Assembly: GCF_021028975.2 (NCBI RefSeq)
Contig: NC_059430.1
Location: forward strand, 109,120,001-109,184,000
Length of the DNA: 64,000 nt
Source: Sphaerodactylus townsendi
Lineage: Eukaryota
Direction: 5' to 3'
Below, piece after piece: positions 1-62,622 of the stretch. The translations under genes were made by a program, and so were the position numbers. Each line of letters opens with the position of its first letter. The stretch's first letter is position 1. Under the pieces are notes generated by a model. It saw only the letters and a list, made by a program, of their open reading frames with translations, was not told the origin of the DNA and made no database searches.

Positions 1-62
1 CTCTGGAATATGGACTCGAAAATGCAGGCTGGTGAGATGGTGTTCAGGTCCTGTCCATGTAT
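1..62 (-). CDS. MTF1: MTF1 exon 8 (partial)
   Basis: ttctccag|IHGQDLNTISPACIFESIFQ..., runs off window. Confidence 0.9.
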   Translation of the reverse strand, partial: MHGQDLNTISPACIFESIFQ

Positions 63-334: not shown

Positions 335-412
335 TGGATTAGAATTATCCCGCAAATCTGAATCTGTGGACATGAGGCTCAAGTCGCTCAGGCAGAGCGA
401 TTGGTTCGTATC
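335..412 (-). CDS. MTF1: MTF1 exon 7 (acidic activation/NES region)
   Basis: 78 nt, DTNQSLCLSDLSLMSTDSDLRDNSNP, ag/GTAAGT. Confidence 0.95.
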
Positions 413-1054
413 CTGGGGAAAAGGAGAGGGGCCTTCTTTTAATCAGTGGAGCATTTAAAATTATAAGGGTGGTTTGTCTCACCCTTTCCTCGTGTCGCAA
501 GAAGGATGGAGTAAGGGGGACCCAAGACATTTGCTGGGCCCTTTAAAACAAAAGTACGAAGCACCATTGAATGGGAGGATTGCCAGCAACTGAAGGACAG
601 CAGTGGAGTACTCAAAGGGCACTTGAAGGCACCTCTAATTGCATTATCAGCTTAAATGGCACTAGAATGAGTGTCCAGGGAGTCAAATAGTATGAATAAT
701 ACCACTGTGAACACAGATAATGCAAGCCAAGTGAATACAATAAACCCTGAGAAATATTATTCCCACAAGGGAGAAAAGAAGACAGGCCACACCTTAGATG
801 TCTTTACTAAGAAGCAAGTCTCCTTTCTTTCATGCTGGAAAAAATGCTGTTTGCCTTTGGACTCCTGTTTGAGATTGCTGCCAAGGGTGCTCAAAACTAG
901 GCATCGGTTTTTAATGGTAGGAAATCTTCCTGACCACCATACTATGTGCAAAAATGCACATCTTTGTTCATATTCCCCACTGTGCAATTTCATCTGCAAA
1001 AAGCTCCTAAGAAGTTGGACTTCTACAAGAGTCTCAGCCTTGGATATCCTAGAT

Positions 1055-1192
1055 CAGGGGTCTCCAACCTGCTACCTTCCAAATGTTCATGGACTACAAC
1101 TCCCATCAGCTCTGCCGATTGGTCATGTTGGCAGGGGATGATGGTAATCATAGTCCATGGATATCTGGAGGGCTGCACGTTGAAGTCCCCTA
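1055..1192. mobile_element. hAT-type MITE
   Basis: CAGGGG terminal inverted repeats; 8-bp TSD TCCTAGAT. Confidence 0.85.
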
Positions 1193-1270
1193 TCCTAGAT
1201 ACTGACAGATAAAGAACAGTGTGTTGCCAAAAGAAACCTGCATTTCCACCTTAAGGATGAAGCCACCCAC

Positions 1271-1404
1271 CTCAGAGATGTTGCTGTTGGAGAGAACAGT
1301 GTAGGAGGGCCCTTTGTCGTGCCCCTTCATGTGACTCTTGAGACTGTATTGTGTGCTGAAGGTCTTCTCGCAACCATTGCTGGGGCAGAAGAAGGGTCTC
1401 TCAC
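1271..1404 (-). CDS. MTF1: MTF1 exon 6 (zinc finger 6)
   Basis: 134 nt, [29 protein letters not shown]. Confidence 0.95.
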
Positions 1405-1960
1405 CTGCAACAGCACAAATCAGTGAGAATTTGTGCATGGCCAGCTGCTTTTATGTTGCTGCTGGCCCAAGAATTCTTTACTGCTCGGCAGACCTGGGAT
1501 TTCCTAGGGAAGGGGCCTTGGCTCAGTGGTGGAATATTTACTTAGCCTACAGAAAATCCCAGGTTCAATCTTTGGCACCTCCAGTTGAAAGATCTGGCGG
1601 TAGATGGTAAGAAAGACCACTGACTGAGGCCCAGGAGCGCCAATGTTGGTCTGAGTTGACAATATTGACTTTGATGGAGTGAGAGTCTGATTCAGCATCA
1701 AGCATCTTCATGGGTTCATACGATTTCAAATGCTCGAACAGGATTCAGACGCTAATTGGGCAAGAGTGAGCACTGCTAACAGGTTTCAGTGGAAAACCAT
1801 TTTGGCATGACTGCTTGTTCCATTAGGCCAGGCTGCTTTTGAGTTGATTCTTAGTTTTCACTCATTAATACCGAGCCACTGGCCACCCCATGGCTACATC
1901 ATTACAAGTGACACAGCATTACAAAGGTGACTCCAGACCTGCCTGTCCCAACTGTCTTAC

Positions 1961-2034
1961 CTGTATGTGTCCTGACATGCGTTTTCAGGTGGTGACTTGC
2001 AGCAAACGCCTTTCCACAACCATCATGATCACAC
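1961..2034 (-). CDS. MTF1: MTF1 exon 5 (zinc finger 5)
   Basis: 74 nt, [24 protein letters not shown]. Confidence 0.96.
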
Positions 2035-2469
2035 CTACAGGGTAAAGGAAAGGGAAGAAGTATCAGCAAGAGGCTACCCGCAGAAACCATTTCTTGCCTC
2101 CTACCAGGTCAGAAACATGGAAAGCAGAAGTCCCCAGCTTGGTTTGCTTTTGGACACAGTGGCGATGTAGGAGAGGAAGGCACAAGAATGCCAGTCCACT
2201 GAGGTCACCGAGCAACTGACCAGGCAAGGCGTCCAGTCATGCCTCCAGGTGGATTGTGTTCCTATGCTGCAGTAAAGGGAGGTGCAATTTCTTCCAGGGC
2301 TGCACCTCCCTGAGTGTTAAAACTCCCCTTCCTTAAGCAAGTATTCAGGTCTTAAGAGCTCAGTCCTACACTGGCTATTCTATGTAAAAGCAATGCAAAT
2401 GCTAAGAGATAACAGGGTTTCAGGCAAAATTATTTATCTGTGAAACTCAAATGTTGCTTTGTTTCAAGT

Positions 2470-2700
2470 GGGTAGTTGTATTGGTCAGCAGTAGAAGAGC
2501 AAGATTCGAGTCTAGTAGCACCTTGTGGACCAGCAAGATTTCCAGGGAATAAGCTTTCAAGAGTCAAAGTTCCCTTCGTCAGATACCCTTCTTGCGTCTG
2601 TTTCAAGAGAGCTTTGACTTTCGAAAGCTTATACCCTGGAAATCTTGTTGGTCCCCAAAGACTTAAATCTTGCTCATATACTACTCTGCAACTGGCATTT
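2470..2700. repeat. Palindromic interspersed repeat (possibly Penelope-related, non-autonomous)
   Basis: Inverted arms accagcaagatttccaggg...agtcaaag / ctttgact...ccctggaaatcttgttggt; related fragments near 5000 and 12950. Confidence 0.6.
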
Positions 2701-3517
2701 CCAAAGTAGCATACAAATGACCAAAACCCAAACAGCAAGGCTAACTTTCCAACACTCAACCAAACAAAACCGTTTCATACTTGTACATGGACCTCCATTA
2801 AAGAGGGAGATTAACTGCTCCAGAACCAGGGGACAACAACATGGTGCCTGTGGGGGCCATGGCACCCACAACACCTTTTCTGGTGTTCGGGAAATGGGCA
2901 GGGCTTTCAGAAAATGGGTGGGGTCAGGTAGGGCTTTTGGTTGACTACTGGAGATTTGATTACCTGGGCAAATTTCTTTTAAATGTTGCTTGGGCAGTGG
3001 CTGCCACTACAGCACACTACACTGCTGCCACTACACTGTGCTACTGAAATTAAGCTGTGGCAATCATTTCGTAGCTAGCGCCGTCTCCTGCCGCAGTAAT
3101 TTCTTTGGCAGCCATTTTGTTGCAGTGCCCATCATGATGTGTCAGATGTGCCAACAGGCTCAAAAACGTTGGGGAGTCTTGTTTTAGACCATCAGGAATA
3201 CTACACAAAAGGACCCTGTTCCTTGCAGAAAACAATCCAAGTGGGGGGCTCACTGGCTAAGGTTTCGGGGAAGTTTATATGGGAGAAGGCACTCATGAAT
3301 GTTCTCCAGACCCTGATCTTCGAGGGCTTTACAAGCACCTTAAATTGATCTTGAAAATAAACTGATAACCAGCTCAGTCGTCAAAAGCAGCAGTGGGATT
3401 CTGTTCCAATCTCCACAGTACTCCTCCAACTTTTTAGGAAGCCCCATGGTACAGTAATCTAATCTGGAGCAGTTTAACAACTCTGCTCAATTCCTCTGCT
3501 GCAACTCAAGAGCTCAC

Positions 3518-3649
3518 CTGAAGGGCTTCTCGCCGGTGTGAGTCCGAATGTGTTTCCGTAGATCACTGAGTGTAGTGAAATACTTGCTGCAACCCTCTGA
3601 TTCACAGTTGAATGTTTTCCCTGTGTGAAGCCTCTGATGGGCTTTCAGC
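3518..3649 (-). CDS. MTF1: MTF1 exon 4 (zinc fingers 3-4)
   Basis: 132 nt, [33 protein letters not shown]. Confidence 0.96.
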
Positions 3650-3968
3650 CTATAGAGTGGGAAGAAGGAGACACTGTTACTTGTGGTATCTTCTGAACTG
3701 GATCCACCCAACAAAGTAGGCATGGGGAAATATCTGAACATGATGGCAGCCAGGGGAATCTCAAGCTGAAACATTCAACATTTGGGTAGCAAAGGAAGCC
3801 CTTCTTGCAGATCCTGCAGGTAGCCTGGATCAACAGACCTGCCCAACACAGACCCACGCTTGTAAGGAAAGTTGTGGGGAGACTATTCTTCAATTTGGGA
3901 CTTTCAGAGAGGCTGAAAGCATGAGCACAATCAAGATCTTCATGGAGAGAGAACCCTCCCACGCTTAC

Positions 3969-4207
3969 CTGTACAGTGTATTAAAGGCTTTTTCACAGCC
4001 TTGAACATCACACTCAAAAGGTTTCTCCTTGGTGTGGACGCGAACATGGATTTTGAGACTGTAGGAGGTCAGGAAAGCCTTTCCACAGCCCTCCTGGTTA
4101 CACACAAAGGTGTATTCCCCTCGGTGCGTCTTCTGGTGGGTGCGCAGGTTACCTGCAGTGCTGTAGGTACGAGGACAGCCCTCAAATGTGCACTGGTAGC
4201 GTTTCAC
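3969..4207 (-). CDS. MTF1: MTF1 exon 3 (zinc fingers 1-3)
   Basis: 239 nt, [24 protein letters not shown]...CEKAFNTLY. Confidence 0.97.
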
Positions 4208-5639
4208 CTGGGGGGGGGGGGAAGCACAAAGATGGCACATTGAAATCTACCTGCTGCTGACATTGTTACTCCTCTTGACCTGGGCAAGTTACTTTCTGTA
4301 AACCTAAGCCTCATCAAGAAGAACCAGACAGGATTCATTTCTTCCAGTAAAAGAGACCACAACATGATTAGCATGAAGCTGTTCATCCATCAGGCTCCAC
4401 AACTGAGTCTAGCTTTAGGCAAGGTTTGATATGAACACCGTCTAGCTCTGTGAGATGACAACGGAAAAGGTTACTTCAGGTGTTAACTCAGGTAACTCAG
4501 AGCATTTTGCAGTGGATGAAATCAAGCACTCTGCAAGGGGAAAGGGCCAATGGCTACTGGCCTAAGCTACTTCACTTGAGGGTAACAGTGGAGGAACTTC
4601 TCAAACTGCCGCAAAGGTAAAGAGGTGTTTGCTCTTTACAGTTAGAGGAAAAAGTAGACAACAGTAGAATGAGGTACCTTCAAGTCTCAGTAGGAAGGAA
4701 CAAACATCAGCAGTTTCAGAAAGACAAGTTGGGATGACATCATGTTGTCTTCCCATCCACCTCTATTCAACATCCAGCAGTTTCCTTAAAGGGGAAAGAC
4801 TGGTTGAGCAGCTACAGCCACAAGTCTCATCGCTCCATGCCCATCTCCAGCAGTGCATTTCAGCTGCCAGTCCTAAAAAAGTCCCAAACCAGCAGCCCCA
4901 AGGCGAGGAATGAGACAACTGGTCAATCTCACGGAGCAGCAAATCTGTCCCAGCCATCTGCTCTGTACTTAAAGAGTCACATACAAGATTATGGCTGACC
5001 ACGCAGGCTCTAGTCTGCTCCATGAAAGCTTATGTTAGAATTAAGACAGGTTATAGCCTTTAAGATGCCACAAAACTCTTGGATTACCTTTGCTGCAACA
5101 TACTAACATGGCTAAGCCTCTGGAATACCAACTTGATGCTTCCTACTGAGCATAATCTTGCCAAAGGTTTACAGAGTGAGTCATCCACTTAATGCTGCTG
5201 AGCGTGGTTAGGTGAAGGATCTGAACAGGTGAGCTCTGGGAAGGAAGACTTCAAAGATCCTTCCATTCCTTCTGCTTTCTTTCCTGAACGAGATCATTTA
5301 AAGGTCAGGGGACAAACCCCCCACTGCCTTGAAGGCTCAGGAAAGACTTCTAGGTATGCTAAGAGCAACAGGCAGTCAGAACAGAAGTCAAAGGCTGCCA
5401 GGAAAAGGAGGTTTAGGATGAAGCTGATTCTCCTGTGTGAAATAAAGGGGCATTTGTAAAGCTTCCTCACAAGGGTCATATTGGATCATCAAGGCAGTTA
5501 AACCAATGCTTTGAAATGCTGGGGTTGGCTTTTAAGTGAATGTTATTTCTGGTCAATCTGGAGTTTCGGTTTGCTCAACTGTCAGCTGCTTCAGAGACTT
5601 TTGGAAGGCGGCTCAATAAAGATCTACCAACAACTAAAG

Positions 5640-5815
5640 TGGGCCAGGCTGACCCGATCTCATCCATACTCAGTAGCTAAGCTCTGGTTAGTACTTGGAT
5701 GGGAGACCACAGAGAAAGACCTGGGTTGCTACTTAGAGGCAGGCCATTGCAAACCTCCCCTGTTCGTCTCTTGCCTTGAAAAACCTACAGGGTCGCTGTA
5801 AGTTGGCTGCAACTG
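5640..5815 (+). mobile_element. SINE with 5S rRNA-like head; further copies near 17870, 23290, 26100, 27610, 33260, 38160, 41880, 52880
   Basis: cccgatctc...ggttagtacttggatgggagacc followed by a shared tail ending tcttgccttgaaaa. Confidence 0.7.
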
Positions 5816-6066
5816 CACCACAATTCCCATGATCAAAGTTTCTACCTGCCCACTTTCACAAGAACTGAACCATGGATCAGGAAAACAGGAAGATAACTAC
5901 GAGACAATTGCAGAGAGATTGCACAATACCAACTTGAACACCGTGCCTTCCTTTCACAACAGAAAGAAGGAAGTAGGATGAAAGCGCAAGGCAGTTTTGT
6001 AATGACTGCTGGTGCTAACAAGAGGCCAATCTCTGTGAAAGTGAATTCTGACTAGTTAATCTAGAG

Positions 6067-6214
6067 CAGGGGTAGGGAACCTGCGGCTCTCCAGATGTTC
6101 AGGAACTACAATTCCCATCAGCCCCTAACAGCATGGCCAATTGGCCATGCTGACAGAGGCTGATGGGAATTGTAGTTCCTGAACATCTGGAGAGCCGCAG
6201 GTTCCCTACCCCTG
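6067..6214. mobile_element. hAT-type palindromic MITE (young copy)
   Basis: Near-perfect 148-bp palindrome centred on CATGGCCAATTGGCCATG; TSD ATCTAGAG. Confidence 0.92.
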
Positions 6215-7919
6215 ATCTAGAGACACATCCTTAACTTGGTTCCTCAGCAGAGGTAGGAAGAGGGGCTACCATTTCTCATGCAGCCACACCCTTTAGTACA
6301 GGACATGGACAAAGAGAATCTCAGGAAAGATTTTACCATTGTAATGCCTTTCAAAGTTGGCAGACAATTATACTGAGTGTAAACATACTTTAATGAAAAA
6401 GCCACCATGTGAGACTTATCCGTGCTTAGCCCCTGGTGTCCCTTGGGGCTGAAAAATGACTTTTCAAATTATGCATTGGAATAACTAGGATAAAAAAGGC
6501 TGGTTTTATGATTCTCTAAGATTTTGCAAAGGTAGAGAACAAAAATATTAAATTTTAAAAGCTGCAGGTACCCAACTGTACCTTCCATTAGTGACTAACC
6601 AAGTCTGGAAAAAAACAGCATAGGTAAAAATTAGCAGAAGCCCTAGCAAAGAATTTGAAGGACAAAGAGCAGAGGAGCCGGCAATGGCTCCAGCATCTGT
6701 TGCCAACAGCTCTGGAACTTGGCCAGTATCAATCCTGCTGGCAAGGGCTGCACAGGGACAGAACACAGCCCTGTCAGAAAGCCAAGACATGCCACTGGGA
6801 TTAGTCACAGGGAAAACAGGAAATGTTCGTGTCCCCCCCACTCCCCCACCCCCAAAAAATCTGAAATGAGATTCAAGTGCCTAGACACTTGCATCTTCCC
6901 AAGGCAAGTCAAAAACAAAGACACAGGAATTTACAGCACTGAAAGGGGACAATAAGTCTGCATCTTCCAACTGGATTGTGCCCAGGATCTAGGTGACGAG
7001 AAAATATTCTTGGTGGAACCAGCAAATGAGTGACTTAAGGATCAAAGAGTTACAGGCAAAGTTTTGCTATAAAAACTTCCACCTCTTTAATTGGGCCCAA
7101 GAATTGCACGGCATAGGGTTGGGAGGGGGTGCTTGAGCTTCTGGGCTAGCCAAGTTACAAAGAAGCATCTCCCACATAACTTTATATGGGCTCTCCTGCC
7201 CCTCCAGTGCTTTCAACCACCATTTCTTGAATGTCTGTGCTACTAGTTCACAGAAGACGCAAACAGCCAGCCCTACATTCTCCCATAGGAGAAAACCATC
7301 CAATGTATTTTATGAAGGAAATGGGCTAGCTGCATGAATCTTTGGATGAATCTCTTGCGTTGTCAAAGTGTGAAGTGTTCATATGTGCAAGTGGAACAAA
7401 CATTCTGCCCTGTATCCCGGAAGCTGCTACGGCAATGGTGACTTCTGGTATTTTTACACAAGTCCCCAAATGGTTTGGGCTTCAATTATAATTGATTGAG
7501 ATTCAAAGGTGATTTGAACCTTAGGTGCTCTTTGGAAGAGCGCTTGGACTCTTCTGTTCTTTACTCGTGCTAAACGATAGGCAATTACCAATCTAAGTCA
7601 ATAGGCAACTCCCAAAGCATCAAACCCTTCAAAAACAGAACTGTGTGAAACAGCACCATGGCATTTCTGATAACACCTCTTCCACTCACCCTGGTAATAG
7701 GGAGATAATATTGTTGGCCAATCCACATTGATCCTGAAGAACTTGGGGAAAAAAGGCCACAGGCTCAAGATAAGCAATAGCTGAGGCACAAATGACTCAA
7801 CAGCAGCATACAAGTCTTCCAGAATTACAAGAGAAAGCTGGATGAGTGTGTATCAGGAGAAATGGGGGTAGTGTTTAGAGTATTTAAACTCTTAAGCCAG
7901 CAGACAAGCTGTTGCCACC

Positions 7920-8035
7920 AAAAAAGTTGCTGGCTCAAAGTCATCTAAGAGAATAGTAACGTGAACAGTTCTATCATCTATGATGACTGTTCACATTACT
8001 ATTCTCTTAGATGACTTTGAGCCAGCAACTTTTTT
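7920..8035. repeat. 50-bp inverted repeat (hairpin) with 16-nt loop
   Basis: 7920-7969 is the reverse complement of 7986-8035 with a single mismatch. Confidence 0.95.
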
Positions 8036-10476
8036 CTACTCTGGGTCTGACCTTTGAATAGGTCAGATGCAACAGCTACAGCCAATCAGCTGTCAGATGG
8101 CTGGTATGGGAGAGGTTTGGACCCTAGGAGTCAACAAAACTGAGCTCTTCAAGTTTTGTTGCAAACCAAGGTGACACATCAATAAAACAAAGCAGATTCA
8201 ACACAGACATGAAGTAGAAAACTGACATTTTATCAGCTTTGAAAAAAAATGCCTTGCACACTGCTGAGGAAACACTCTGGGTCAATCACAACCAAAAGTT
8301 CACTGGCTTGGGCTTGCAAAAGTCCTTTTACCACAAACCTGTTGCTGCTGCTGAGTAAAGAGTCTGCTGTTCTTTGCTTGATTGCAAAGCTGCAGGGAGC
8401 AGAACAAAACACACCAGAGGCCTTTCACACACAGTGCCTTTCACAGCACAGTTCAGTACGCCCTGGCAAAGGAAACTTGCACTCAAGGGAGAAAAGTGGT
8501 AGCACAAATAACTATGCCCAGAACAGCCTGGTGAGCAATCTGAATGCAACAATCAAGACAATTCACAAAAGCAGGCTCTATTCTATGGAAACAAAAGTTT
8601 GTAGCTGAGAAATTCAGCTTAGCCTACCTGTGTAAGATGACCAAGCAACTTTGCTCTGAAGGAGGCCAATAGTCTAACCTTGCGCACAAAGATGATGATA
8701 GGCCATCCCGTTAAAAAAAGTCTTGAGGAATTTTATAATCTCATAAATTCATGGGAGAATAAAGTTTTCCTAAGCATGCACGAATCTGCAGTGCACCCTA
8801 CTCCAAGAAAGCTTCCAATACATTAAATCCATTAGTCTTTAAGGAACCTATTGTTTTTTAAGTCTTTTTGTCTTTACAATGAAAAATGAACTACATTTTA
8901 ATTTCAACTAGAGTTAACAAGTGCCAATAGTTTCTGCAAACTAAGGTCTCTGTCTCTTCCAAACTATCTTTTCCTGAACAGCTAATTAATAATATCAATT
9001 TAAGTCGCGATCAATTATCTGAATATACAGATATTGCAGTGGAAATTCCAGGAGAATTTTATCCCTGATAAATTCATTGAAATGAGAATTTCTCCTGATT
9101 ATTTTCTGGACAATAGAAAGATGTTTCAGAGGACCCATCAGTCTTTCTCCAGAGCTACCAAAGTAATCAAAATATATGTAATCAAAATATAGACTTCAAT
9201 AATCAAACTGAAACTAGAAAGGCTGCTTTAGAATTCTGCAGTTTTAAAATTGCAGACTAAGATTCTGAAGATCCAGACCAACTCTGATAACTTCAATTTT
9301 GTTATGACTCAAATGAACAGCACTTCTGCCCTGTTAGCCATTTAAGGAATTCTTCCTAAAAGGAACAAAATACCTGCTTAGGCAGCTGGAGAACTGACAA
9401 AAAATGGATTGGAGAATGTGCTCATTAATAACAGTATAAAAGCTAAAGAAGAACCCATTCATACCAAGGATTATGGGAACCAAACGAAAAGAGAAAGAAT
9501 TTGATCTCTATGTTCTGTTTGTTGGCCTTTCTAGGCAACTGGCTGGGCACTATGTGAAAAAGGCTACTGGACCGGAAGGATCACTGGTCTGATCTAGAAG
9601 GACCTTTAAAAAATGTTTTGCTTTTTTTTTTAGGGTCTTGCATTTTTACAAACAGCATGCGAAGGAATGACCAAATTAACAGGTTAAATCAGGAAACAGC
9701 AGGTGTTAGTATCTGGACTGCTGACACAAGCACACTTCAGAGCTCTCCCTGGTATGGTATACTCCTGAATTTAATGGGAATCTTAAATTCACTTTCCATT
9801 TTAATTTGAAGAGAGACATATGCATTCTGAATTACCCTATATGAAAAGGTATATGGATGCAGGGCCTGTAAAACCGATTTGTTCCACTCGGCCTTTGGGG
9901 AGGCCGGCCGCGGATTGCCTGCCCCCTCTGATGCCCCCGTGTTGTTTGTTATGCCATCTTTGGCACTGCCGATATAACATCTATTCTGCGCTGTCAGTCC
10001 CCTCCTGGCTTGAGATCGGGCGCCACCTCTATTATCAACTGGGTTTGTTAACGCTGCTGTGTTTTTTCAGAGTTTTAAATCACGGATTTTAATTTAATTT
10101 ATTATGTATTATTGTTCTACACGCTGTTTTGTTGTACACCACCCAGAGCCCTTCGGGGGTGGGCGGTTTATTAAATCAAACAAACAATAATAATGATAAT
10201 GATGATGTTTGATTTTTTGCTCTACAGAAATTTGTCTCAGAAAATGAGGAGAAGCAAATATTCAAAATCATCACAGAAGCTTAATCAAGTTCGGGTAAAG
10301 GCAAATAATCTCCACATTAGCTCTGCAATGTAAGAACAGGATCCAGAATTATATTTTGAACAGTGATCTTACAGCTTTAAAAGTAATACACAGCAACATT
10401 TTGAGATGGAGTTTCTCATTGCTAGACAAACGCCTGCAAAAAGGAGAAAGTAGTCGGATTACAGTCTGTTACTTAC

Positions 10477-10887
10477 TTCTTTAAACTTGGTCTCAGGGCA
10501 CTCTGATTGCAAAGTAAGGGTGGCTCCTTCTATGTTTCGTGGCATCGGAGTTGAACCAGGGTTGATAGTCAAATGAATCTGATCCGGAGAAATAATGTGC
10601 TGGACATAACCCTGGGATATTCCTTCATGGTCCGCTATCAAATGAAACCTGTCCTCATGACCTTCTGGTAGAAAAGTCAGAGGATCGCCACACTGCCCTT
10701 CATCATCTTCTTCCTCCAGTGACCCTTGGTCTTGTTCAATGAGGACTGTTGTTCTGTCGTACACTGTCCGTGACAAAGATGAGACAAGGCCATTCTTGTC
10801 CACAAACCTTAATGGTTTATCCTCCTGTGCCAAGTCATCTTCCTCCACTTCATAATAGATGACACTCTCAGGACTGTGTTCCCCCAT
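10477..10887 (-). CDS. MTF1: MTF1 exon 2 coding part (start codon)
   Basis: accATGG Kozak at 10887; 411 nt; donor GAA|GTAAGT; exon acceptor at 10938. Confidence 0.96.
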
Positions 10888-11644
10888 GGTTCAGAGGAAT
10901 TCAGGGAAGGGTCGCAGGATAAATAAGCAGCAGCTTACCTGAGGCAGAATAATACAAAAGACAGTGATGACAGTCCAATCAGTGCTTCACCAGAAACCAA
11001 GAAATCCAACCTTCTGCCAATATAGTGTCCTGCTTTAATTTTTTTCTCAGATGTTACTTCACATTGTTACTCTTTAGCTGATTTGGGAGGCGCTTTATTC
11101 ACATTTACTGCAATACCTGTTATGCAGAAAAGTGGCTTATAAATAATTATACATTTTAATAGACTAATCACAACTAAACTTTGCATCCAATAGCATTCAG
11201 TGTGTGAGTCCCTCTCTACAGCCAGAGTCCCTCTCATTTAGATTTTGCCTTTCTGGCCAAAGGCTCACACAGTGACTCTCGATGCAATTAAAATACGACA
11301 ACAGAACGCAACTCAAAATAACCTGTAAAGTTTATTTTAAACACGTCGGAGCTAGGACTGGCCTGTCAGAAGACAGTGGCGCACTGGGCGACCCAGTTTG
11401 GCCGTGCAGGAGAACAGAGTCCCCGCGCCGGGTTCTGGGCTAGCACAAGCTGAGGGTCGCCTCCACGGGCCTGCCTCTCGTTAAGGTTCCCAGGCCCGGC
11501 GACAGTCCATATGGGCTCGGAGGGGAAGGGGAGACCCCTTTCCTATCTGTCCCCCTCCCAATGTTACCACAGCCCCCCCCCTCAAGCCCCAGAGGGAGCG
11601 CAGAGACCCTCCGCCCGCAGCCCCACTTCCCAGCGCTGCCTCAC

Positions 11645-28279: not shown

Positions 28280-28487
28280 NNNNNNNNNNNNNNNNNNNNN
28301 NNNNNNNNNNNNNNNNNNNNNNNNNNNNNNNNNNNNNNNNNNNNNNNNNNNNNNNNNNNNNNNNNNNNNNNNNNNNNNNNNNNNNNNNNNNNNNNNNNNN
28401 NNNNNNNNNNNNNNNNNNNNNNNNNNNNNNNNNNNNNNNNNNNNNNNNNNNNNNNNNNNNNNNNNNNNNNNNNNNNNNNNNNNNNNN
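28280..28487. other. Assembly gap (208 N) in an INPP5B intron
   Basis: Run of N; flanking exons join in frame, so no coding exon appears to be missing. Confidence 0.99.
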
Positions 28488-30373: not shown

Positions 30374-30927
30374 CAGGGGCGTAATGCCCATTGGGCAAGG
30401 TGGGCAGCTGCCCAGGGCATCACCTTGTGAGGGGCACCAAAATTCAGGGTTCGTTTTTGGGTATTTTTAGTGGTTTTCCATTTTTGGCCTGCAGGGGGTG
30501 CAGTTTTTAGGCTAGCCAGCAGCACCAAATTTTCAGCGTTTTATCAGGAGACTGTCCTTATGCTACCCCCCAAGTTTGGTGAGGTTTGGTTCAGGGAGTC
30601 CAAAGTTATGGACCCTCAAAACTGTAGCCCCCATCTCCTATTAGCTCCCATTGGAAACAATGGGGGATGGGGCACCCCCTTTGGGAGTCCATAACTTTGG
30701 ACTCCTTGAACCAAACCTCACCAAACTTGGGGAGTAGCATAAGGACAGTCTCCTGATGATACGCTGAAATGTTGGTGCTGATATATCTAAAAATGCACCC
30801 CCTGCAGGCACCAATGTCCTGGTGCAAAAAAATTTGGTCGTGGTGGAGTGGCCGCCCATGGGGAGGGGGGGGGTGGGATCCAACTCAGGTTTTGCCCAAG
30901 GCTGCAGTTTGCCTCGTTATGCCCCTG
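30374..30927. mobile_element. Non-autonomous hAT-type element with long internal inverted repeat
   Basis: TIR CAGGGGCGTAA...TTATGCCCCTG; TSD CAGGAAAG. Confidence 0.85.
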
Positions 30928-39094: not shown

Positions 39095-39634
39095 GTGCAA
39101 ACTGATAGTCAAGGAACAGCCCGAAAAAATGCTGACACCCCCCCCCCCCGGGCTGCAATTGGCAGCCTCCAAAAGGGTCCCAGGGACATGTATTTGAAAA
39201 AGAAGAGTTTGGATTTATACCCCACCTTTATCTCCTGTAAGGAGACTTAAGGTGGTGATAAGCTCCTTTCCCTTCCTCTCCCCACAACAGACACCTTGTA
39301 AGGTAGGTAGGGCGGAGAATGTTCCCAAGAACTGTGACTGGCCCAAGGTCACCCAGCAGGAACGTAGGAGTGTGGAAACATATCTGGTTCACCAGATAAG
39401 CCTCTGCCGCTCAGGTGGAGGAGTGGAGAATCAAACTCAGTTCTCTAGATTAGAATCCACCTGCTCTTAACCACTACACCATGCTGGCTCTCACGCATAC
39501 ATGTTAGATCAGCCCTTTTGCATTCTCCTCATGATAAGCAGTCAGCTCTTCTCCACCCCACTCCATGCCCGCAGGAGAGGAGTCCAGCAGAGTCCCCTTT
39601 GGGGATTCACACACTCTCTTTTCCAGAAGGATAT
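39095..39634 (-). other. INPP5B: U12-type AT-AC intron of INPP5B
   Basis: 5'ss ATATCCTT, branch TTCCTTGAC at 39108-39116, 3'ss AC; keeps the reading frame. Confidence 0.92.
39197..39490 (-). mobile_element. tRNA-derived SINE
   Basis: Reverse complement of tggtgtagtggttaagagc...ataaatccaaactctt; same family as 45349 and 62336 copies; lies inside the AT-AC intron. Confidence 0.8.
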
Positions 39635-39691: not shown

Positions 39692-40179
39692 CCTGTGGGT
39701 TGGGAAGAAAACAGATGGGGTTCAGAAGACAGAAACCAAACAAGAGCCTTATTTTCAGCTGGGTGTGATGGGCGCTAAAGTCACTATCAACCTGATAGTG
39801 AAGTCCCATCTGCTAGCAGGGAGCTATTACACAGGATGGTCTAGACAAGAGCAATTCAGGTTGCAACCTGGAGGATGCCCACTGTCAATGCCAGCACGTT
39901 TTGATGATTAATTTATGGGGGCCCATAAGTAAGAAGCGAGTTGAAGCAGGTAACCCACACACATGGAGGCACCAATAAAAAGTGAGCATTTTAGTAAGGG
40001 ACTTCTTTTGCGATTCAAGGCCCTGCTATCCTGGCTGAAGGGGGAGGGGCACGATCCTTAAAAAAATGAACTAATTCATCATCAGCAACACTCGATATCT
40101 TCAACCCCTGCTTGCTTTCTTAACTCAGATTCCGTTGGAGAGGGTATCATCATCCCTCTTGGTTCTTCTTACTCAGGGT

Positions 40180-40640
40180 GCTAAAAACGCTGCCTCGGAC
40201 TCTGGCAGCCAAAGATGCTTATGAAGAGTAGGGAGGGGGGGGGGGAGGGAAACTGTCTCGCCTCGTTTCTCCAGCCGCCTCCCCAGCTGGCAAGGGAAGC
40301 ACCCGAGAGGCCCCTAAGCCCGACCCCCAGCTGCTGAACCCACCCCCGCCATTGGCCAAGCACGGAGCCTTCCGGGCTGCAGACAAGAGACCCCCTCCTC
40401 GCAAGTAGAGGCTGCCCCGGCCAAACGGGCTGCACTTACCTTCCGCCCCCTCGCAGGCAGCGGGGCGCTCCACATCAGCGGCCCAAAAGTGGCCCCTCCT
40501 GCCCGGAGGCGGTGGCCTCTTCGCGTAACCCTTGCGCAGCTGGGCCCAAATGGCGCGAGCCCTCCACCCCGAACTCTGGGATGGCAGGACTGTTTGCGAT
40601 GCCCCAGGGCTCAGGGACCCCCGAGTCGACCCCCGGATGC
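40180..40640 (-). promoter_or_regulatory. INPP5B: INPP5B CpG-island promoter and 5'UTR exon 1
   Basis: CpG-rich; strong donor AAG|GTAAGT at 40440/40439. Confidence 0.7.
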
Positions 40641-41537
40641 AAGAGCATGGGTGGGAGGGCTAGCTAGGATGTGGAAACCATTTCCCTTCCTTTGTGCCTG
40701 TCCCATTATTATGATACATTTTAACGCTTTTTCTGGGCTGTAGGGATGATTTCGTTTCCTCTTTGCCCGTCCCACTGTTTGGTCTTAATTTTCACAACTT
40801 TTTATCTTTCACTCATGTTGTTGCGTTGCTGTAAATTAATCTTTAAAAACCCCTCCCAAAAAATCGATGCAGTTATATGCAGGAGTTTTTTCTCCTTCCC
40901 CGGTGTTAGTTGGTTCTGTTCAAACTTTTGTTTTGACCTCCTCTCCTCTTTGCAATCGGAGCTGTTGAATGATGGAAATGTATACATGGCGGGATATTGC
41001 GAAAGGGCAGTGTGTAAGGTTGCCAGACCTGGGTTAGGAAACTCTTGGAGATGTAGGAGGTGAAACCTGGGGAGACTGGGGTTTGTGGACAGAGGGATTT
41101 AGGATGGGTATAAAACTATGGAGTCCACCCTGTGAAGCAGACATCTTCTCCAGGGGAACTGATAACCGCAGTCTGGAGATCAGTTGTAATTCTAGGGGAT
41201 TTCCTGACGCTTTCTGGAAAATGGCAACCCTAGCAGTATGGCCAGGAAACAGCACTATCACCCAGCCCTTTCTGCTAGCTGTATTGCTGCTTTTCTAGTC
41301 TGTGCTGGACAAGGTAGTGATGCAGTCAGAAATATTGCCCCAACCCAGTCTGGGAAAAACAGACAAGAGGACAACACAGAACATTGGATAAGTTTGGCAG
41401 CAATAGCTAGATTCCTCCCCTAAACCAATGTTTTGTGTAGGAGGCAGTTCTCGGATAAGATGATTGGAGTTCATTGTCCTGCTCTTCGTTTGTGCTTTCC
41501 CTTTGAACCATGATGTTTAGTTGCCTCTAGGAAGAGT

Positions 41538-43658: not shown

Positions 43659-43664
43659 TTTATT
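43659..43664 (-). terminator. Candidate poly(A) signal of the unnamed LU-like gene
   Basis: Minus-strand AATAAA about 730 nt after the stop codon. Confidence 0.4.
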
Positions 43665-44392: not shown

Positions 44393-44656
44393 TCAGTGGG
44401 ACCCCAAGGAAAACAACAGGACGTAGTTCAGACCCAGAAGCGCTGCCCCAGTCAGAAGCTGAAGCAGAAAGGCTGGAGCCAGGGACCTGGCCCGGTTGAA
44501 GTGCACTTTGCCATCCAGCTTGAGGCAGCTGGCTTTGGGCATTGCTTGGCAGCATTCCTGAAAGCAGGGCTTAGTGGATCCAGTGGTGCAGGGCTTGCCA
44601 GATGTTTTGCAGAGCTTGCTGCAGCCTGCCACGTAATGGGGTCCTGTTTTCTTCAT
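44393..44656 (-). CDS. Unnamed LU-like gene coding exon 7 (domain 2 C-half and GPI signal)
   Basis: 264 nt, MKKTGPHYVAGC...CFQECCQAMPKASCLKLDGKVHFN-RARSLAPAFLLQLLTGAALLGLNYVLLFSLGSH*. Confidence 0.9.
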   Translation of the reverse strand: MKKTGPHYVAGCSKLCKTSGKPCTTGSTKPCFQECCQAMPKASCLKLDGKVHFNRARSLAPAFLLQLLTGAALLGLNYVLLFSLGSH

Positions 44657-44996
44657 CTAAAGGGAGAAGAAAAAGCAGAGGTCAGGATGTGGCTGCAATC
44701 AACAGCCCTGTTGAATGAAGAACTACAACCTCTCCATGAAAGGCCGAGGATTGCCAAGGTCTAGAATAGGGTTGCTAACCTCCTGGTGGGACCTTGAAAT
44801 CTCCCAGAATTATCACTGCTGTCCAGACTACAGAGGTCAATTCACATGGATAAAATGGCGGCTCTCTGCCAGCTCAGGCAGAGAGTTGCTGGGCAGCAGA
44901 GTGAGTGGTACACCAGAAACCATCCCAGCTTATCTCTCTGGCCAAACACCAAATACAAACTCTCAACTCCGGACACAGGACGAGAGGGGTGCCTGG

Positions 44997-46454
44997 CAGG
45001 GACGTATGTATAGACTTTTTATGGGGGGGGGGTTGGGGGGGCCACACCCCCACCCGCCCCAGGGCATGGCCACGCCTCCCCAAACCCCGCCCCTGGCCTA
45101 GCACTTATAAAAGCAGCTCTCCGAGGTCGGGGATGGCAGACTCCCCTGCCCTGCCCTCCCCTGCAGCTCTCCTCTGGGCAGAGGCATAGAGTGAAAATGG
45201 AGCCTGGTGCAAAATCTGAGTTTTGCCCCCCCCCACCCCCGGGGCAGCTGCTGTGATGCAGGAATCCACCCCCAAACAGCATCACTTTCAATGGTGTTTA
45301 AACTAGATCCACCTTAAAGGGAGAATCTGAAACAGCATCACTTTCAATGTGGCGTAGTGGTTAAGAGCTGGTGCATTCTAATCTGGAGGAACCAGGTTTG
45401 ATTCCCTGCTCTGCCACTTGAGCTGTGGAGGCTTATCTGGGGAATTCAGATTAGCCTGTGCACTCCCACACACACCAGCTGGGTGACCTTGGGCTAGTCA
45501 CAGCTTTTTGGAGCTCTCTCAGCCCCACCCACCTCACAGGGTGTTTGTTGTGAGGGAACAAGGGCAAGGAGATTGTAAGCCCCTTTGAGTCTCCTACAGG
45601 AGAGAAAGGGGGGATATAAATCCAAACTCTTCTTCTTCTTCTAAACTGAGGACCTCAGATTCTCCCTTTAAATCCATGCCGAAGGGGGTGGATTTAAAAG
45701 GAGAATCTGGGGAAATTTGGGGGGTGCCTGCTGTCAGGGGTGCAATGGTTAAGCTAGAAGCACCAAACTTTCAGGATATCTTTAGGAGTCTCTCCTAATG
45801 ATACCACCCAGGTTTGGTGAAGTTTGGTTCAGGGGGTCCAAAGTTATGGACCCTCAAAGGTGTAGCCCAGGGGTAGGGAACCTGCGGCTCTCCAGATGTT
45901 CAGGAACTACAATTCCCATCAGCCTCTGTCAGCATGGCCAATCCCTACCCCTGGTGTAGCCCCATCTCCTAAGCTCCCATTGGAAACAATGGGGGATGGG
46001 GGCACCCCCTTTGGGAGTCTATAGCTTTGGACTCCCAGGACCAAACTTCACAAAACCTAGGTGGTATCAATAAGAGACTCTCCCGATGATCCCTCCCAGG
46101 TTTGGTGAAGTTTGGTTCAGGATGTCCAAAGTTATGAACCCTCAAAGGTGTAGTCCCCATCTTCTATTAGTTCCCATTGGAAACAATGGAGGATGGGGGC
46201 ACCCCCTTTGGGAGTCCATAACTTTGGACCCCCTGAACCAAACCTCACCAAACCCGGGTAGTATCATCAGGAGAGTCCCCCAAACAATCCCTGAAATTTT
46301 GGTGCTGCTAGCCCAAACAATGCGCCCCCTGCAGGCCAAAAACCGAAAAAGCACTAAAACGTTTTAAAAACCCACAAACGGGTGGGCGGAGCTTCGGACA
46401 TGAATGGGGGGGTTCAAACCCGAGGAAAACCCCGCCCCCTTACCTACGTGCATG
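44997..46454. mobile_element. Composite non-autonomous hAT-type element carrying a nested SINE (about 45349-45641) and MITE (45868-45953)
   Basis: TSD GTGCCTGG; imperfect TIRs; internal repeats shared with the 30374-30927 element. Confidence 0.8.
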
Positions 46455-46656
46455 GTGCCTGGTAATGTGTATGACTCCTTGTGGACTATGGTTATCCCAC
46501 CACCCTGCCCCCTTAGTCTGGGCTGGGCTGGAAGGGGGGTCATGAGGAGAATTAAGCTGGAAAACAGTCTTGTAAGTCAGGCCCTGACAGAAGCAACGCA
46601 GTATGGCAAGGATCTGAATTTAGGTCTACGTCAGGAAGTCAGACAAGTCATAGTAC

Positions 46657-46752
46657 CTCACAGTAGTCAAAGCCCACAATACAGCCAGCTGAGGCCTTCT
46701 GGCCCTTGTAGCAGCCGTCTCCGTGGCAGGTGAAGGATGAGCACACTTTTCC
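46657..46752 (-). CDS. Unnamed LU-like gene coding exon 6 (domain 2, N-half)
   Basis: 96 nt, GKVCSSFTCHGDGCYKGQKASAGCIVGFDYCE; parallels exon 3. Confidence 0.9.
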
Positions 46753-46914
46753 CTGGAAGGACAAAAGACAAGCAAGGTCACGGTCCAGAGTAGAATTCCC
46801 ACTGCAGGGCAAAAGGGCGCATGGAACAGTGGGAGGAAAACATTATTTCCACAGCTAGCTGGGCAAGGAGTTCAGGAAATGCCCCAGCTTGTGCAAACAT
46901 GAAACAACACGTAC

Positions 46915-46979
46915 ATTTTTGGGAGGCGCTTTTGTGGTGGTTGTCGTGGGAGCTGGTGTGGTGGTGGGTGGCAGGTCTC
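46915..46979 (-). CDS. Unnamed LU-like gene coding exon 5 (Thr/Pro linker)
   Basis: 65 nt, GDLPPTTTPAPTTTTTKAPPKN|GTACGT. Confidence 0.88.
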
Positions 46980-47301
46980 CTGGAAAAGACATGAAAGGAG
47001 AAAAGGGTGAGGGCAGGGCTGATGACCTCCAGTGGAAGCTGTAAACCACATACTGCTGTGGTGGCATCTTTCTAAAACAGCTCTTGGCTCCCGAGATCTA
47101 GTGAGAAGGGGCAGTTCTGCCCCCAGAAAACCAGGAAAGGCCTGCCTGATAATAAAACTAGGCCCAGAAGTCCCACTAGACTTGCTTATTCTCCACTGAG
47201 CGGAAGCCTGAAACATACAGAGGCCACATTTTAGTATTATGGGTAGCTAAAGAAAAAACACACCGTTTGCTGAGGAAATACCTCCTGCTGGATTCACTTA
47301 C

Positions 47302-47467
47302 CGTAGGCTGTGGCATTGAGGCTGAGGCAGTTGGGTGAAGCACAGCACTCCATTGTACACACGCTCATGCTCACACTGCCATTGGTCATGCACATCTCAG
47401 TGGTGTTGCTGCTCCCACACTCACTGCTGCACCGGGCTGTGTAGCTGGTGCTGTTGAACCGGTAAAG
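47302..47467 (-). CDS. Unnamed LU-like gene coding exon 4 (domain 1, C-half)
   Basis: 166 nt, LYRFNSTSYTARC...CTMECCASPNCLSLNATAY G|GTAAGT. Confidence 0.9.
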
Positions 47468-47591
47468 CTGCAAGAGCCACAGAAGCATAAGCCGCATAAG
47501 CTGTGGTTTCTCCAGGTTGATTTACAACCCACCCTCTCTCTGGTAAAAGCCATGGCTCTTCTGAGCGGGAGGGTGCCTTGGGGTTCCCCAC

Positions 47592-47690
47592 CTCACAGTG
47601 TGTTGCGTTGTGGCAGGGCTCCGTGTTGTTGCCGTGAGCTTCATTCTGGTAACATTGCTCCCCAGAGCACTGGAAGCTTTGGCAGGTGAG
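47592..47690 (-). CDS. Unnamed LU-like gene coding exon 3 (domain 1, N-half)
   Basis: 99 nt, LTCQSFQCSGEQCYQNEAHGNNTEPCHNATHCE. Confidence 0.9.
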
Positions 47691-48215
47691 CTGTAAGGAG
47701 AAGAGGCAGTGACTGCAAAGTCTGAAGGGGCTCCTTGGCCACGTCACCTCCCCAGTGCTTTGCCAGGAGACATTTTCCTCAGTCCTGATCCCTCCTCGTG
47801 GTTGACCACCTTGCTTTCCAGTAGCTCTCACATCTGCCCAGCAAGGACTTCTCTACCATCTACAGACTTCCTGTCCCATGAAAGATCTTCTCCAGAAAAC
47901 CCTCCCGCCCTGCAGTTCCCATCCTGATCCCCAACATGCTGTGGGTTCAGCTAGTTGATGAGCTTTCTTACGGGCATCATGCCTGTTTGGTTCATTCCTC
48001 TGTCTGAGACCAGGGGAGCTCCTGAAATGGGCCCAGGATCTGGAAGAGAAGAGTGAACAGAGGCAGTCTCAGCCATGGAGGAGGTGAAGGTCTCTGGGAT
48101 GGGAAATCCAGATGATTCACCCTCCCTGCCAAGAGACCAGCCAGACCACACAGGCATGTCCTGGGTTACAGCCACTCTTCTTCGCTCCCAGAATGCACTT
48201 CTTGCTCTCACCTAC

Positions 48216-48271
48216 TGGTGTGCAAAGATCCCAGGTGCTGAAATGCAGAGCAGCCCAGAACAGAAGGAAGC
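48216..48271 (-). CDS. Unnamed LU-like gene coding exon 2 (signal peptide core)
   Basis: 56 nt, (G)FLLFWAALHFSTWDLCTP|GTAGGT, phase 1-0. Confidence 0.75.
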
Positions 48272-48456
48272 CTACAGAAAGAGACAGGTAGATCAGTGCT
48301 GGCAGAAATTTTAGGGAAGCACATCTCTTCAGGAGCTTCCAAGCTTGTTCTGAAAATGTTTAGAACCTTTTTTCAGTCTGGACCAGGAGCATGCTCCATG
48401 CAAAGAGCCCACAACCCATAAAAGTTCCTATTCTGTACAAGAATGAAGGCTCTTAC

Positions 48457-48493
48457 CTTGGGTTGGCGTGATCCGGTAGCTCGGATGTACCAT
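48457..48493 (-). CDS. Unnamed LU-like gene coding exon 1
   Basis: ataATGG Kozak; MVHPSYRITPTQ G|GTAAGA; exon acceptor at 48531. Confidence 0.75.
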
Positions 48494-49249
48494 TATTAAC
48501 CACAGGGACTTGCTGCTACTGAGACCTCGGGCTGAGGAGAGTAACACATGCACTTTGAGGGGGAAGGAGGAATCTGAGAGTCGGGAAAGCAAATGCCACC
48601 AAGATATGAGGCCTAACAGTCAAATGCACACCCCCCACCCAAACACCTATGGCCACCTGTCTACCAGGCAGCCCAAACTCAATTTCACAATTCATGCCAC
48701 TCTCTTGGCCTTTTATGCCAGGACTGAAAAGAATAAAAAGGTACTCTCATATGGCTGCCGAACTGTTTCTCCATCTAATCAGTTTACCTTGGGCAAAATC
48801 TCGTTCCTGAGCTTGCGATGCTCTGACCATAATCACCGCTTCTGGGGGAGGAGAGGCCCAGAAAGGGGCCGCCAGCCTGCTAGAACACTCATTAGCCTTG
48901 CTTTCTCAGAGGAAATTGTTGACTCTTTTTGCTCTTTACACCAAGGTGACCATACGTGACCATCTGTTTCACAAGACACCTTGTGCCACTGGCGGCAGCT
49001 CACTCCCTACAGGATGGTGCCAGGTCCCACACAAGCACCTAGTGTGTGTGACTCATTTGGACCTACAGAGCACTAAACCTCCACAGCATGCTCTCTCTTT
49101 GACTCTGTTATGTCTCACACTGTTAGGACTGATGCTAGCCAAGACCACCCATTCCCATCTGGTCATTCACAGCCTAGAGAGACCCAGCAAAGTTCACACC
49201 TGGATCTTCCTGGGAAGCACTCTCAATGGCAGCCGAGAACAACTTTTTA

Positions 49250-59929: not shown

Positions 59930-60274
59930 CTGCAGGAGAAGGAATAAGAGAAAGAAAATATTTTAATATTATTTTTTTACATTTTAAAATGTTTATTTAT
60001 TAAGAATTCTCCATTAAATAGAAAACTAAGCTGGTGATTTTAATAATTTTTATTATTTACTAAAATACAGTTGAAAAGGATACAAACAAAATTCTAAGTC
60101 ACGAACTCCAAAACAATTATAACACATCATGTGTACAGGCTTAAAATTAAAACTTGCTAGATAGAAAAGTGTTTAGAAAGAGGGGTGATTTGGGGTGGGA
60201 GGGACCAGGGGGGAGCCTGCCTGCCTGCCTGCCCGCCCCCACCCCCGGCGCCCGAGGGGACCCCGGCCCAATAC

Positions 60275-60370
60275 CGTGGTCTTGCGCGTCAGCATCTCTT
60301 TGACCATGACGTCCATCAGCCGTTCGCGCTCCTCATGATACCGGCGCTGCTGCTCCAGAATGGTCTCCAT
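60275..60370 (-). CDS. SF3A3: SF3A3 exon 1
   Basis: 96 nt, METILEQQRRYHEERERLMD. Confidence 0.96.
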
Positions 60371-60600
60371 CGCGGCGGCAAAGAGACGGAAAACGGTGGC
60401 CGGAAGTACTCCGGATGGACGGAAGTTGCGCTATAAAATACCGCCCGGAGAGATAGTTCTGATTCCGGCAGCGCGGAGGGTAGGAAAGCAGCCGATGGGA
60501 CCAATCACGACAGCGCCCCTGGCGGTCCACGGCGGGAAAGCCTATCTCTGGAGCCGAGTCGTGGGAGGGCTGTTTGCTCTTGCAAGGGATACAGCCGCGT
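60371..60600 (-). promoter_or_regulatory. SF3A3: SF3A3 CpG-island promoter
   Basis: CpG-rich; CCGGAAGT ETS motif at 60400-60407; CCAAT at 60501-60505. Confidence 0.7.
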
Positions 60601-62335: not shown

Positions 62336-62622
62336 GAGCCAGTGTGGTGTAGTGGATAAGAGCAGGTGCACTCTAATCTGGAGAACCAGGTTTGATTCCC
62401 CCCCTCTGCCACTTGAACTGTGGATGCTTATCTGGTGAACCAGATTAGCTTGTGTACTCCAACACATGCCAGCAGGGTGACCTTAGTCACAGTTCTTCAG
62501 AGCCCCACCCACCTCAGGGTGTTTGTTGTGACGGGGGGGGGGGGGGGGGAAAGGAGATTGTAAGCCCCTTTGAGTCTCCTTACAGGAGAGAAAGGGGATA
62601 TAAATCCAAACTCCTCTTCTTC
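62336..62622 (+). mobile_element. tRNA-derived SINE
   Basis: A-box-like tggtgtagtgg head, ...ataaatccaaactcctcttctt tail. Confidence 0.8.

Follow-up and report, generated by a model that had tools for sequence, protein, structure and literature searches.

Introduction

LU proteins regulate fertilisation, complement, lipolysis, and Wnt and cholinergic signalling. The canonical LU domain contains ten cysteines, with an invariant Asn after the tenth, and is encoded by two exons with phase-1 introns on either side and an inner intron that falls at the loop 2 tip (PMC6600238). In the same source, human proteins with several LU domains map to 19q13, have the generic exon structure, and have an N-terminal LU domain without the bond between cysteines 7 and 8 (7–8 bond); some fish and amphibian uPAR-like proteins keep the N-terminal 7–8 bond (PMC6600238). 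LYPD6, LYPD6B, and Lynx2/LYPD1 have six disulfides, with loops I and III holding the additional ones (PMC7582953), and an extra loop III disulfide is described for type II TGF-beta family receptors (PMC6600238). Here, we analyse a gene in a 64,000-nucleotide (nt) stretch of DNA from the gecko Sphaerodactylus townsendi (NC_059430.1:109,120,001-109,184,000; hereafter the window, in whose positions all coordinates are given). The gene (hereafter the LU gene) is a multi-exon open reading frame with GT-AG introns on the minus strand, 44393-48493, and its product is predicted to contain two tandem LU domains (D1 and D2) of a kind that falls outside the named LU subfamilies.

Results

The gene and its two 12-cysteine domains

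The LU gene is real, and is RefSeq-predicted in many species under uninformative names. Specifically, a protein search with the last exon retrieved the S. townsendi RefSeq entry "uncharacterized protein LOC125434253 isoform X2" (284 amino acids, 100% identical over the query), and the eight coding exons in the window (855 nt) encode this protein letter for letter. The identity to an annotated protein, together with the conservation of cysteines in homologues, rules out an artefact or chance open reading frame. An earlier reading of the window from its letters alone (the original prediction) had taken the family to be probably uncharacterised, and this held up, with protein searches returning uninformative labels only and no named, characterised gene.

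The protein comprises two domains of ~80 residues with 12 Cys apiece, in a pattern that the original prediction had set out and that we confirmed in its seven-exon translation. Conservation was assessed in an alignment, A2, comprising 87 largely full-length sequences (43 species-named, 44 not) that were retained from 162 after removal of fragments and near-duplicates. Every one of the 24 domain Cys occurs in 76–87 of the 87 rows, and exactly 12 Cys are found in D2 in 77 of 87 rows and in D1 in 65 of 87; the 25th Cys of the gecko protein, C29, lies in the signal-peptide region. The Cys spacing is 4,4,12,5,13,3,8,10,3,0,4 in D1 and 4,4,9,6,12,3,6,7,3,0,7 in D2. Each domain has the ten ancestral LU Cys in order, ending C8-C9...C10, with a first spacing of C-x4-C, not C-x2-C. 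The extra pair lies, by order, between Cys7 and Cys8, in loop III, and the disulfides inferred for each domain by homology to LU proteins are 1-5, 2-3, 4-6, 7-8, and 9-10, plus a putative loop III bond (C114-C125 in D1 and C220-C228 in D2). Cys7 and Cys8 of D1 are retained (C105 in 82 of 85 aligned residues; C129 in 82 of 85). The sixth disulfide had been put forward as a novelty; we reject this, because LYPD6, LYPD6B, and Lynx2/LYPD1 also have six, so twelve Cys per domain are not new (PMC7582953).

The residue after the last Cys is never Asn (0/82 in D1; 0/86 in D2), and is Leu in 75 D1 and 78 D2 domains; D2 ends in the motif C-L-x-L-[D/N]-G. In eight tetrapod-like homologues (P0085, P0087, P0089, P0091, P0093, P0094, P0095, and P0118), a 13th Cys directly precedes the last Cys of D2. 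Five of the eight were included in the domain tree described below, at positions near one another. The 13th Cys is apparently unpaired in the mature chain and could give a disulfide-linked dimer.

The two domains differ in predicted surface. D1 has a mean of 5.6 N-sequons and a net charge of −2.4 (76 domains), D2 a mean of 0.8 N-sequons and a net charge of +3.4 (86 domains), and D2 of 35 amniotes 0.09 N-sequons and a net charge of +6.6. Non-Cys identity is 0.36 for D2 vs 0.31 for D1, with D2 higher in 2565 of 3386 non-independent pairs. By these measures, D1 is predicted to be heavily N-glycosylated, and D2 to be basic, nearly glycan-free, and somewhat more conserved. The N-terminal spacer ranges from 13 to 272 residues across members and is Ser/Thr-rich in fish and birds (up to ~270 residues), and the inter-domain linker has 22–54 residues, 41% of them Ser/Thr.

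The predicted fold

The LU Pfam families UPAR_LY6, UPAR_LY6_2, Toxin_TOLIP, PLA2_inh, QVR, and Activin_recp match none of 17 members at E ≤ 1 and none of 87 members at E ≤ 0.5, in scans in which HMMER filters discard weak matches, and a Pfam scan of single exons likewise returned no LU family. Searches with either domain profile found no sequence relative in the PDB at a meaningful E (one spurious zinc-finger match, E 0.08).

An AlphaFold2 model built from 87 sequences has domain blocks with a predicted local distance difference test score (pLDDT) of 82–96, a linker with a pLDDT of 55–58, and a predicted template modelling score (pTM) of 0.45, consistent with two independent beta domains. In a Foldseek search with the model, the 39 rows listed are without exception LU or three-finger chains, judging by title and length, with CD177, uPAR, C4.4A, and TEX101 at the top. 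A second structure search, VIA, which is independent of Foldseek and covers 48,161 chains, returned 41 chains at Z ≥ 2. Three-finger chains account for 39 of the 41 (23/23 at Z ≥ 5); the two unrelated rows have Z 2.8 and 2.0. The best VIA match is Lynx1 for D1 (Z 7.4, root-mean-square deviation (RMSD) 3.2 Å, 69 residues aligned) and GPIHBP1 for D2 (Z 7.2, RMSD 3.2 Å, 72 aligned), and D2 also matches Lypd6b (Z 6.2, RMSD 3.4 Å, 74 aligned). The predicted domains have the size and topology of the LU superfamily (three-finger beta, 60–90 residues). The model and both structure searches bear out the three-finger fold that had been proposed for both domains, and we consider an LU/three-finger fold highly probable. 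In Atlas, the sole cluster reaching 0.9 is the protein's own (0.92, 177 chordate members); its neighbours, all below 0.9, are LYPD6/6B, LYPD1, CD59, sleepless, and DUF753, and D2 alone scores at most 0.88.

Exon organisation and tandem duplication

Coding exon 1 (48457-48493, 37 nt, with the ATG at 48493) encodes the start of the signal peptide and is followed by a phase-1 intron. Exon 2 (48212-48271, 60 nt) encodes residues 13–32, including the hydrophobic core of the signal peptide as judged by hydropathy; a helix spans 11–23 in the predicted model. Exon 3 (47972-48039, 68 nt, phase 1 to 0) encodes the N-terminal low-complexity spacer. D1 is encoded by exon 4 (47592-47690, 99 nt, phase 0 at both ends; C58, C63, C68, C81, and C87) and exon 5 (47302-47467, 166 nt, phase 0 to 1; C101–C135, ending C-L-x-L-N). 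Exon 6 (46915-46979, 65 nt, phase 1 to 0) encodes the Thr/Pro-rich inter-domain linker. D2 is encoded by exon 7 (46657-46752, 96 nt, phase 0 at both ends; C169, C174, C179, C189, and C196) and exon 8 (44393-44656, 264 nt including the stop; C209–C241, ending C-L-K-L-D-G), the remainder of which encodes the candidate omega site and the hydrophobic tail.

The original prediction had seven exons with GT-AG borders (37+56+99+166+65+96+264 = 783 nt) in an open 260-residue frame. The borders and the open frame stand, but the gene has eight exons: exon 2 had been given 56 nt with a donor at 48216, in place of 60 nt with a donor at 48212; the 68-nt exon 3 had been omitted; and the 5′ end had been placed at 48531, 38 nt upstream of the actual ATG. 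The 24 residues added by the corrected exons 2 and 3 align with orthologues. Given the letter-for-letter match of the eight-exon form to the RefSeq protein, we reject the seven-exon form as the main form.

In the gecko gene, a spacer exon (phase 1 to 0), a first LU exon (0 to 0), and a second LU exon (0 to 1) are repeated once, with intron position and phase identical in the two domains. Each domain has two exons, as in canonical LU genes, but both the intron upstream of the pair and the one inside it are in phase 0; the internal intron lies one residue past Cys5, within a predicted strand. From this arrangement we infer that a symmetrical phase-1 module of three exons (spacer plus two LU exons) was duplicated in tandem. 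The two domains are homologous, as their profiles match each other (P 99.2%, E 1e-19). A tree of 63 domains, taken from 33 proteins with rays among them, divides D1 from D2 with 100/100 support, so the duplication is older than the split between cartilaginous and bony fishes. The tree is based on 88 columns, with many inner forks unresolved and platypus misplaced, and broadly follows vertebrate groups.

Orthologues and distribution

Searching with a profile built from 17 proteins of reptiles and birds retrieved 84 proteins (among the best 8000 candidates), and an exhaustive HMMER search against 1.84 billion representatives yielded 97 matches at E ≤ 0.001. Among the additional HMMER matches of at least 200 residues, the 52 inspected (48 plus the four set aside below) all have the Cys pattern of the family, whole or in part. 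Species-named orthologues are found in squamates, turtles, gharial, birds, platypus, coelacanth, bichir, trout, char, killifish, two rays, and tarpon, and bear uninformative labels (uncharacterized, mucin-like, and serine-rich adhesin-like). Squamate orthologues are 63–75% identical.

The platypus orthologue, LOC103167129, is intact. The suggestion that the gene was lost in mammals was therefore wrong as stated, and loss in all mammals is ruled out. The 24, 84, and 35 matches of word-indexed searches include no marsupial or placental names. Four homologues (P0086, P0088, P0116, and P0147; E 1e-62 to 6e-10) are possibly mammalian by look, two of them degraded, and P0086 is 50% identical to the platypus protein over 97% of the domains; the four were excluded from all later analyses (alignment, tree, and counts). 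With searches that were word-indexed or lacked species names, absence of the gene from therians, including human, is not established.

Several gene models depart from the common architecture. P0107 is the most divergent two-domain member, with long branches and 11 Cys in D1, and may extend the range of the family deeper in vertebrates. The fish-like P0137, P0156, and P0157 have D2 only, on a long Ser/Thr stalk, cluster together in the tree, and possibly represent a single-domain paralogue. P0150 has two copies of D1. The chicken RefSeq models P0058 and P0061 end after the linker, without D2 and tail, as do several songbird models; these are either truncated isoforms or annotation errors.

The C-terminus

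The predicted signal for glycosylphosphatidylinositol (GPI) attachment, from a rule-based scan, spans 44396-44497 on the minus strand and comprises a candidate omega site, N251 (44497-44495), and a hydrophobic tail with no Lys/Arg after it. Using our own permissive criteria, with no control, we scanned 86 tails in the same way. A hydrophobic tail is present in 83 of 86, an omega-like small-residue triplet 17–35 residues from the end in 82 of 86, and at most ten residues after the hydrophobic stretch in 73 of 86, with 68 of 86 combining all three. From rays to birds, the small-residue triplet recurs 10–12 residues past the last Cys. In the tails, the hydrophobic stretch includes polar or basic residues, and no cytoplasmic motif is conserved. 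At the C-terminus, the model shows with confidence a helix of 24 residues (258–281); the distance of 33 residues between the candidate omega site and the C-terminus is at the long end of the usual range. This simple scan of tails supports the GPI-type C-terminus that the original prediction had proposed, and we consider GPI anchoring likely.

Possible function

We propose that the LU gene is a single-copy gene found throughout jawed vertebrates, encoding a probably GPI-anchored cell-surface glycoprotein with the order signal peptide, Ser/Thr-rich spacer, D1, Thr/Pro linker, D2, and GPI. It arose by tandem duplication of the three-exon module before the split between rays and bony fishes. Of this picture, the gene, its architecture, its conservation, and the duplication are shown, whereas the fold and the anchor are predicted. 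The protein would be a tethered adaptor without enzymatic activity, in the manner of LYPD6/LYNX, in which the membrane-proximal, basic D2 would engage a conserved receptor or channel of the membrane in cis and modulate it, and the N-glycan-coated D1 and the spacers, prone to O-glycosylation, would form a flexible shield or stand-off. The argument has two parts. With no catalytic domain and no cytoplasmic part, the protein must presumably act by binding. With D1 and the spacers predicted to be glycan-coated, and D2 predicted to be bare, basic, better conserved, and near the anchor, D2 would be the binding module. Precedents in the superfamily are the binding of Lypd6 to Lrp6 in rafts, enhancing Wnt signalling, and protein binding through LU loops and the concave face (PMC6600238). 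For the mechanism as a whole, a GPI-tethered adaptor with D2 binding a membrane partner in cis, our estimate is tentative, with a probability of about 0.42.

Several points weigh against this tethered-adaptor reading. Concerning the fold, an AlphaFold2 model from 17 sequences failed (pLDDT 44); Foldseek gave no match at E ≤ 0.001 (best 1.5e-3); VIA gave no match at Z 8, and according to the tool a match below 8 may reflect merely a common arrangement; and the Atlas neighbours LYPD6/6B, LYPD1, sleepless, and DUF753, being below 0.9, are leads. Concerning the anchor, the GPI criteria are permissive and uncontrolled, and in the gecko tail one cut-off is exceeded by a single residue (11 vs 10). 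Concerning D2, its edge in conservation is modest, and the 3386 pairs are non-independent. Concerning function, a shared fold shows none; the literature searched contained no report of expression, partner, or phenotype for the gene; and a barrier role would account for the heavy glycosylation just as well.

A role of the last kind, as an epithelial or mucosal glycocalyx or barrier protein that is GPI-anchored, apically shed, and either binds microbes or forms a coat, is on balance unlikely. LYPD8 has a barrier-type role in colon. The Ser/Thr-rich spacers of very variable length (13–272 residues) and the ~6 N-sequons on D1 would suit such a protein, as would the lack of a CpG island at the 5′ end of the LU gene (the SF3A3 5′ end has one), which hints at tissue-restricted expression, and the role of fish three-finger proteins in gut innate immunity (PMC13719153). 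Against a barrier role, the gene has one copy in the window, its tree follows vertebrate groups, and its squamate orthologues share 63–75% identity, unlike fast-turnover immune clusters; D2, moreover, is glycan-free and conserved.

That two LU domains pack into a cradle of the uPAR/C4.4A/CD177 kind, capturing a soluble protease, growth factor, or lipase at the cell surface, appears quite improbable. Multi-LU receptors (CD177, uPAR, C4.4A, and TEX101) head the Foldseek results, and D2 matches GPIHBP1, in which a disordered N-terminal segment is likewise encoded by an additional exon (PMC6600238). However, superpositions of both domains together are poor (RMSD 11–17 Å in Foldseek; 6.8–7.7 Å in VIA), the linker of 22–54 residues is 41% Ser/Thr and has a low pLDDT, with a pTM of 0.45 for the model, and D1 is glycan-coated and keeps the Cys of the 7–8 bond that uPAR-type receptors lack.

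More doubtful still is gamete or egg-coat recognition of the Bouncer/SPACA4/TEX101 kind, kept in egg-layers and decaying in live-bearing mammals. LU proteins with a gamete role exist, and platypus is the sole species-named mammalian match. However, conservation seems high for a gamete-recognition protein, and therian absence is not established, with P0086, P0088, P0116, and P0147 possibly mammalian. That the protein has no GPI anchor, and is instead secreted or a type I membrane protein with hardly any cytoplasmic tail, is very improbable: the confident C-terminal helix and the distance of the candidate omega site from the end (long by the norm) are compatible with it, and the recurrent small-residue triplet, the polar or basic residues within the hydrophobic stretch, and the lack of a conserved cytoplasmic motif argue against it.

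The locus and neighbouring features

The window contains four genes, all on the minus strand. SF3a60/SF3A3/Prp9 Pfam domains lie on the 5′ side of the LU gene (54.6-59.7 kb), and 5-phosphatase/ASH/RhoGAP domains on the 3′ side (14.5-32.5 kb), with C2H2 fingers beyond. By sequence and gene order, we take the flanking genes to include INPP5B (not OCRL) and, for the C2H2 zinc-finger exons at 1-11000 on the minus strand, MTF1, giving the presumed order SF3A3 - LU gene - INPP5B - MTF1. CpG-rich stretches (40001-41000 and 60001-60500) lie at the presumed starts of INPP5B and SF3A3. A second copy of either domain was not found among the 2157 six-frame segments of the window.

The fish gene models P0080, P0104, and P0134 are fused to an INPP5B PH domain, which indicates that the gene shares the INPP5B neighbourhood in teleosts. 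In P0104 the INPP5B piece comes first, which hints at nesting in, or rearrangement beside, inpp5b, or at a mis-prediction.

A candidate poly(A) signal, the first AATAAA 3′ of the stop codon, lies ~730 nt away at 43659-43664 on the minus strand. Intron 7 (44657-46656) is 2 kb long and filled with repeats. In particular, it contains a ~300-nt element at 45345-45638, with further copies at 39196-39481 and 62340-62622, which resembles a squamate short interspersed nuclear element; an internally inverted element at ~45720-46360, with a copy at 30465-30812; and a short inverted element of ~75 nt at 45868-45942, of which the window contains many copies. An assembly gap of 208 N (28280-28487) lies within INPP5B.

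Discussion

Literature and significance

Searches by LOC identifiers, product name, flanking genes, and LU terms found no paper on the LU gene, with subscription papers and most supplements outside their reach; the six supplementary files of PMC10421932 contain no match to it, and the LU literature, among the papers listed, does not mention INPP5B. Inventories of LU proteins are based on Pfam profiles or on known clusters: PMC13719153 identifies LU proteins by Pfam profiles, and would likely miss the LU gene, and PMC10421932 surveys the TOP1MT cluster only. A family that ranges from rays to platypus, with an LU Pfam match in 0/87 members, therefore implies that LU inventories based on profiles or clusters are incomplete. 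The family breaks two textbook LU rules (the terminal Asn and the phase-1 exon pair) and yet keeps the predicted fold, and it is open to experiment through its orthologues in model-type fish and birds.

A broader scenario, in which the gene would represent an ancient independent three-finger branch that escapes profile searches, with its own three-exon module, held at one locus since early jawed vertebrates, with a function in receptor modulation or in egg or epithelium that was relaxed or lost in live-bearing mammals, including humans, is possible but speculative. If true, it would mean that all non-mammalian vertebrate models have an unrecognised LU gene and that a gene loss in human ancestry can be dated.

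Comparison with known LU systems

Snake gamma-type phospholipase A2 inhibitors and amphibian SPF pheromones are secreted proteins with two tandem three-finger domains and a Pfam PLA2_inh/UPAR_LY6 signature. The LU protein, in contrast, has no PLA2_inh/UPAR_LY6 match among 87 members and has a GPI-like tail; membership of this group is ruled out by the hydrophobic C-terminal tail in 83 of 86 members.

The LYPD6/LYPD6B/LYPD1 group resembles the LU protein in its three-finger fold (Lypd6b Z 6.2; Lynx2 Z 5.7), in its GPI-type tail, and in having 12 Cys with an extra pair in the Cys7–Cys8 interval (loop III), the bond itself, like the fold and the anchor, being putative in the LU protein, and is among the nearest named Atlas clusters (0.84–0.86). 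Unlike the single-LU members of this group, the LU protein has two domains, mucin-like spacers, and no Asn after the last Cys. The Cys spacing of LYPD6 (2,8,8,6,18,5,4,10,2,0,4) differs from those of both D1 and D2, and sequence searches with the LU protein gave no PDB match at a meaningful E and no UPAR_LY6_2 match. The sixth bond, if formed in the LU protein as well, may be convergent.

The 19q13 proteins uPAR, C4.4A/LYPD3, Haldisin/LYPD5, TEX101, and CD177 share with the LU protein several LU domains on one chain, which is GPI-anchored and, in the LU protein, probably so. The LU protein differs in that D1 keeps Cys7 and Cys8, which rules out membership of the 19q13 type, and in its phase-0 introns, its Thr/Pro linker, and its INPP5B–SF3A3 locus. 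GPIHBP1 and SP-10 (ACRV1) have an extra exon for a disordered segment before the LU domain, as does the LU gene (PMC6600238). Unlike the LU protein, both have a single LU domain, and the GPIHBP1 extension is acidic, not Ser/Thr-rich; the module of spacer plus LU domain is duplicated in the LU gene, but not in GPIHBP1 or SP-10. The ectodomains of ACVR2, BMPR2, and TGFBR2 have a three-finger fold, as predicted for the LU protein (Z 3.6–5.4). We reject membership of the TGF-beta receptor group, from which the LU protein differs in having no kinase or cytoplasmic part, two domains, and a retained 2-3 Cys pair.

With no terminal Asn, with phase-0 introns, and with Cys7 and Cys8 of D1 kept, the LU protein therefore lies outside the canonical signature and is a member of no named LU subfamily, yet has an LU-like predicted fold. 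It does not amount to a new type of system, and any function is putative. The gene family is uncharacterised: the kind of fold is known, and the terminal motif, the exon plan, and the mucin-spaced tandem architecture are unusual. What sets it apart from the systems described above is that it combines two domains of 12 Cys each with Ser/Thr spacers, introns of phase 0, and the lack of a terminal Asn.

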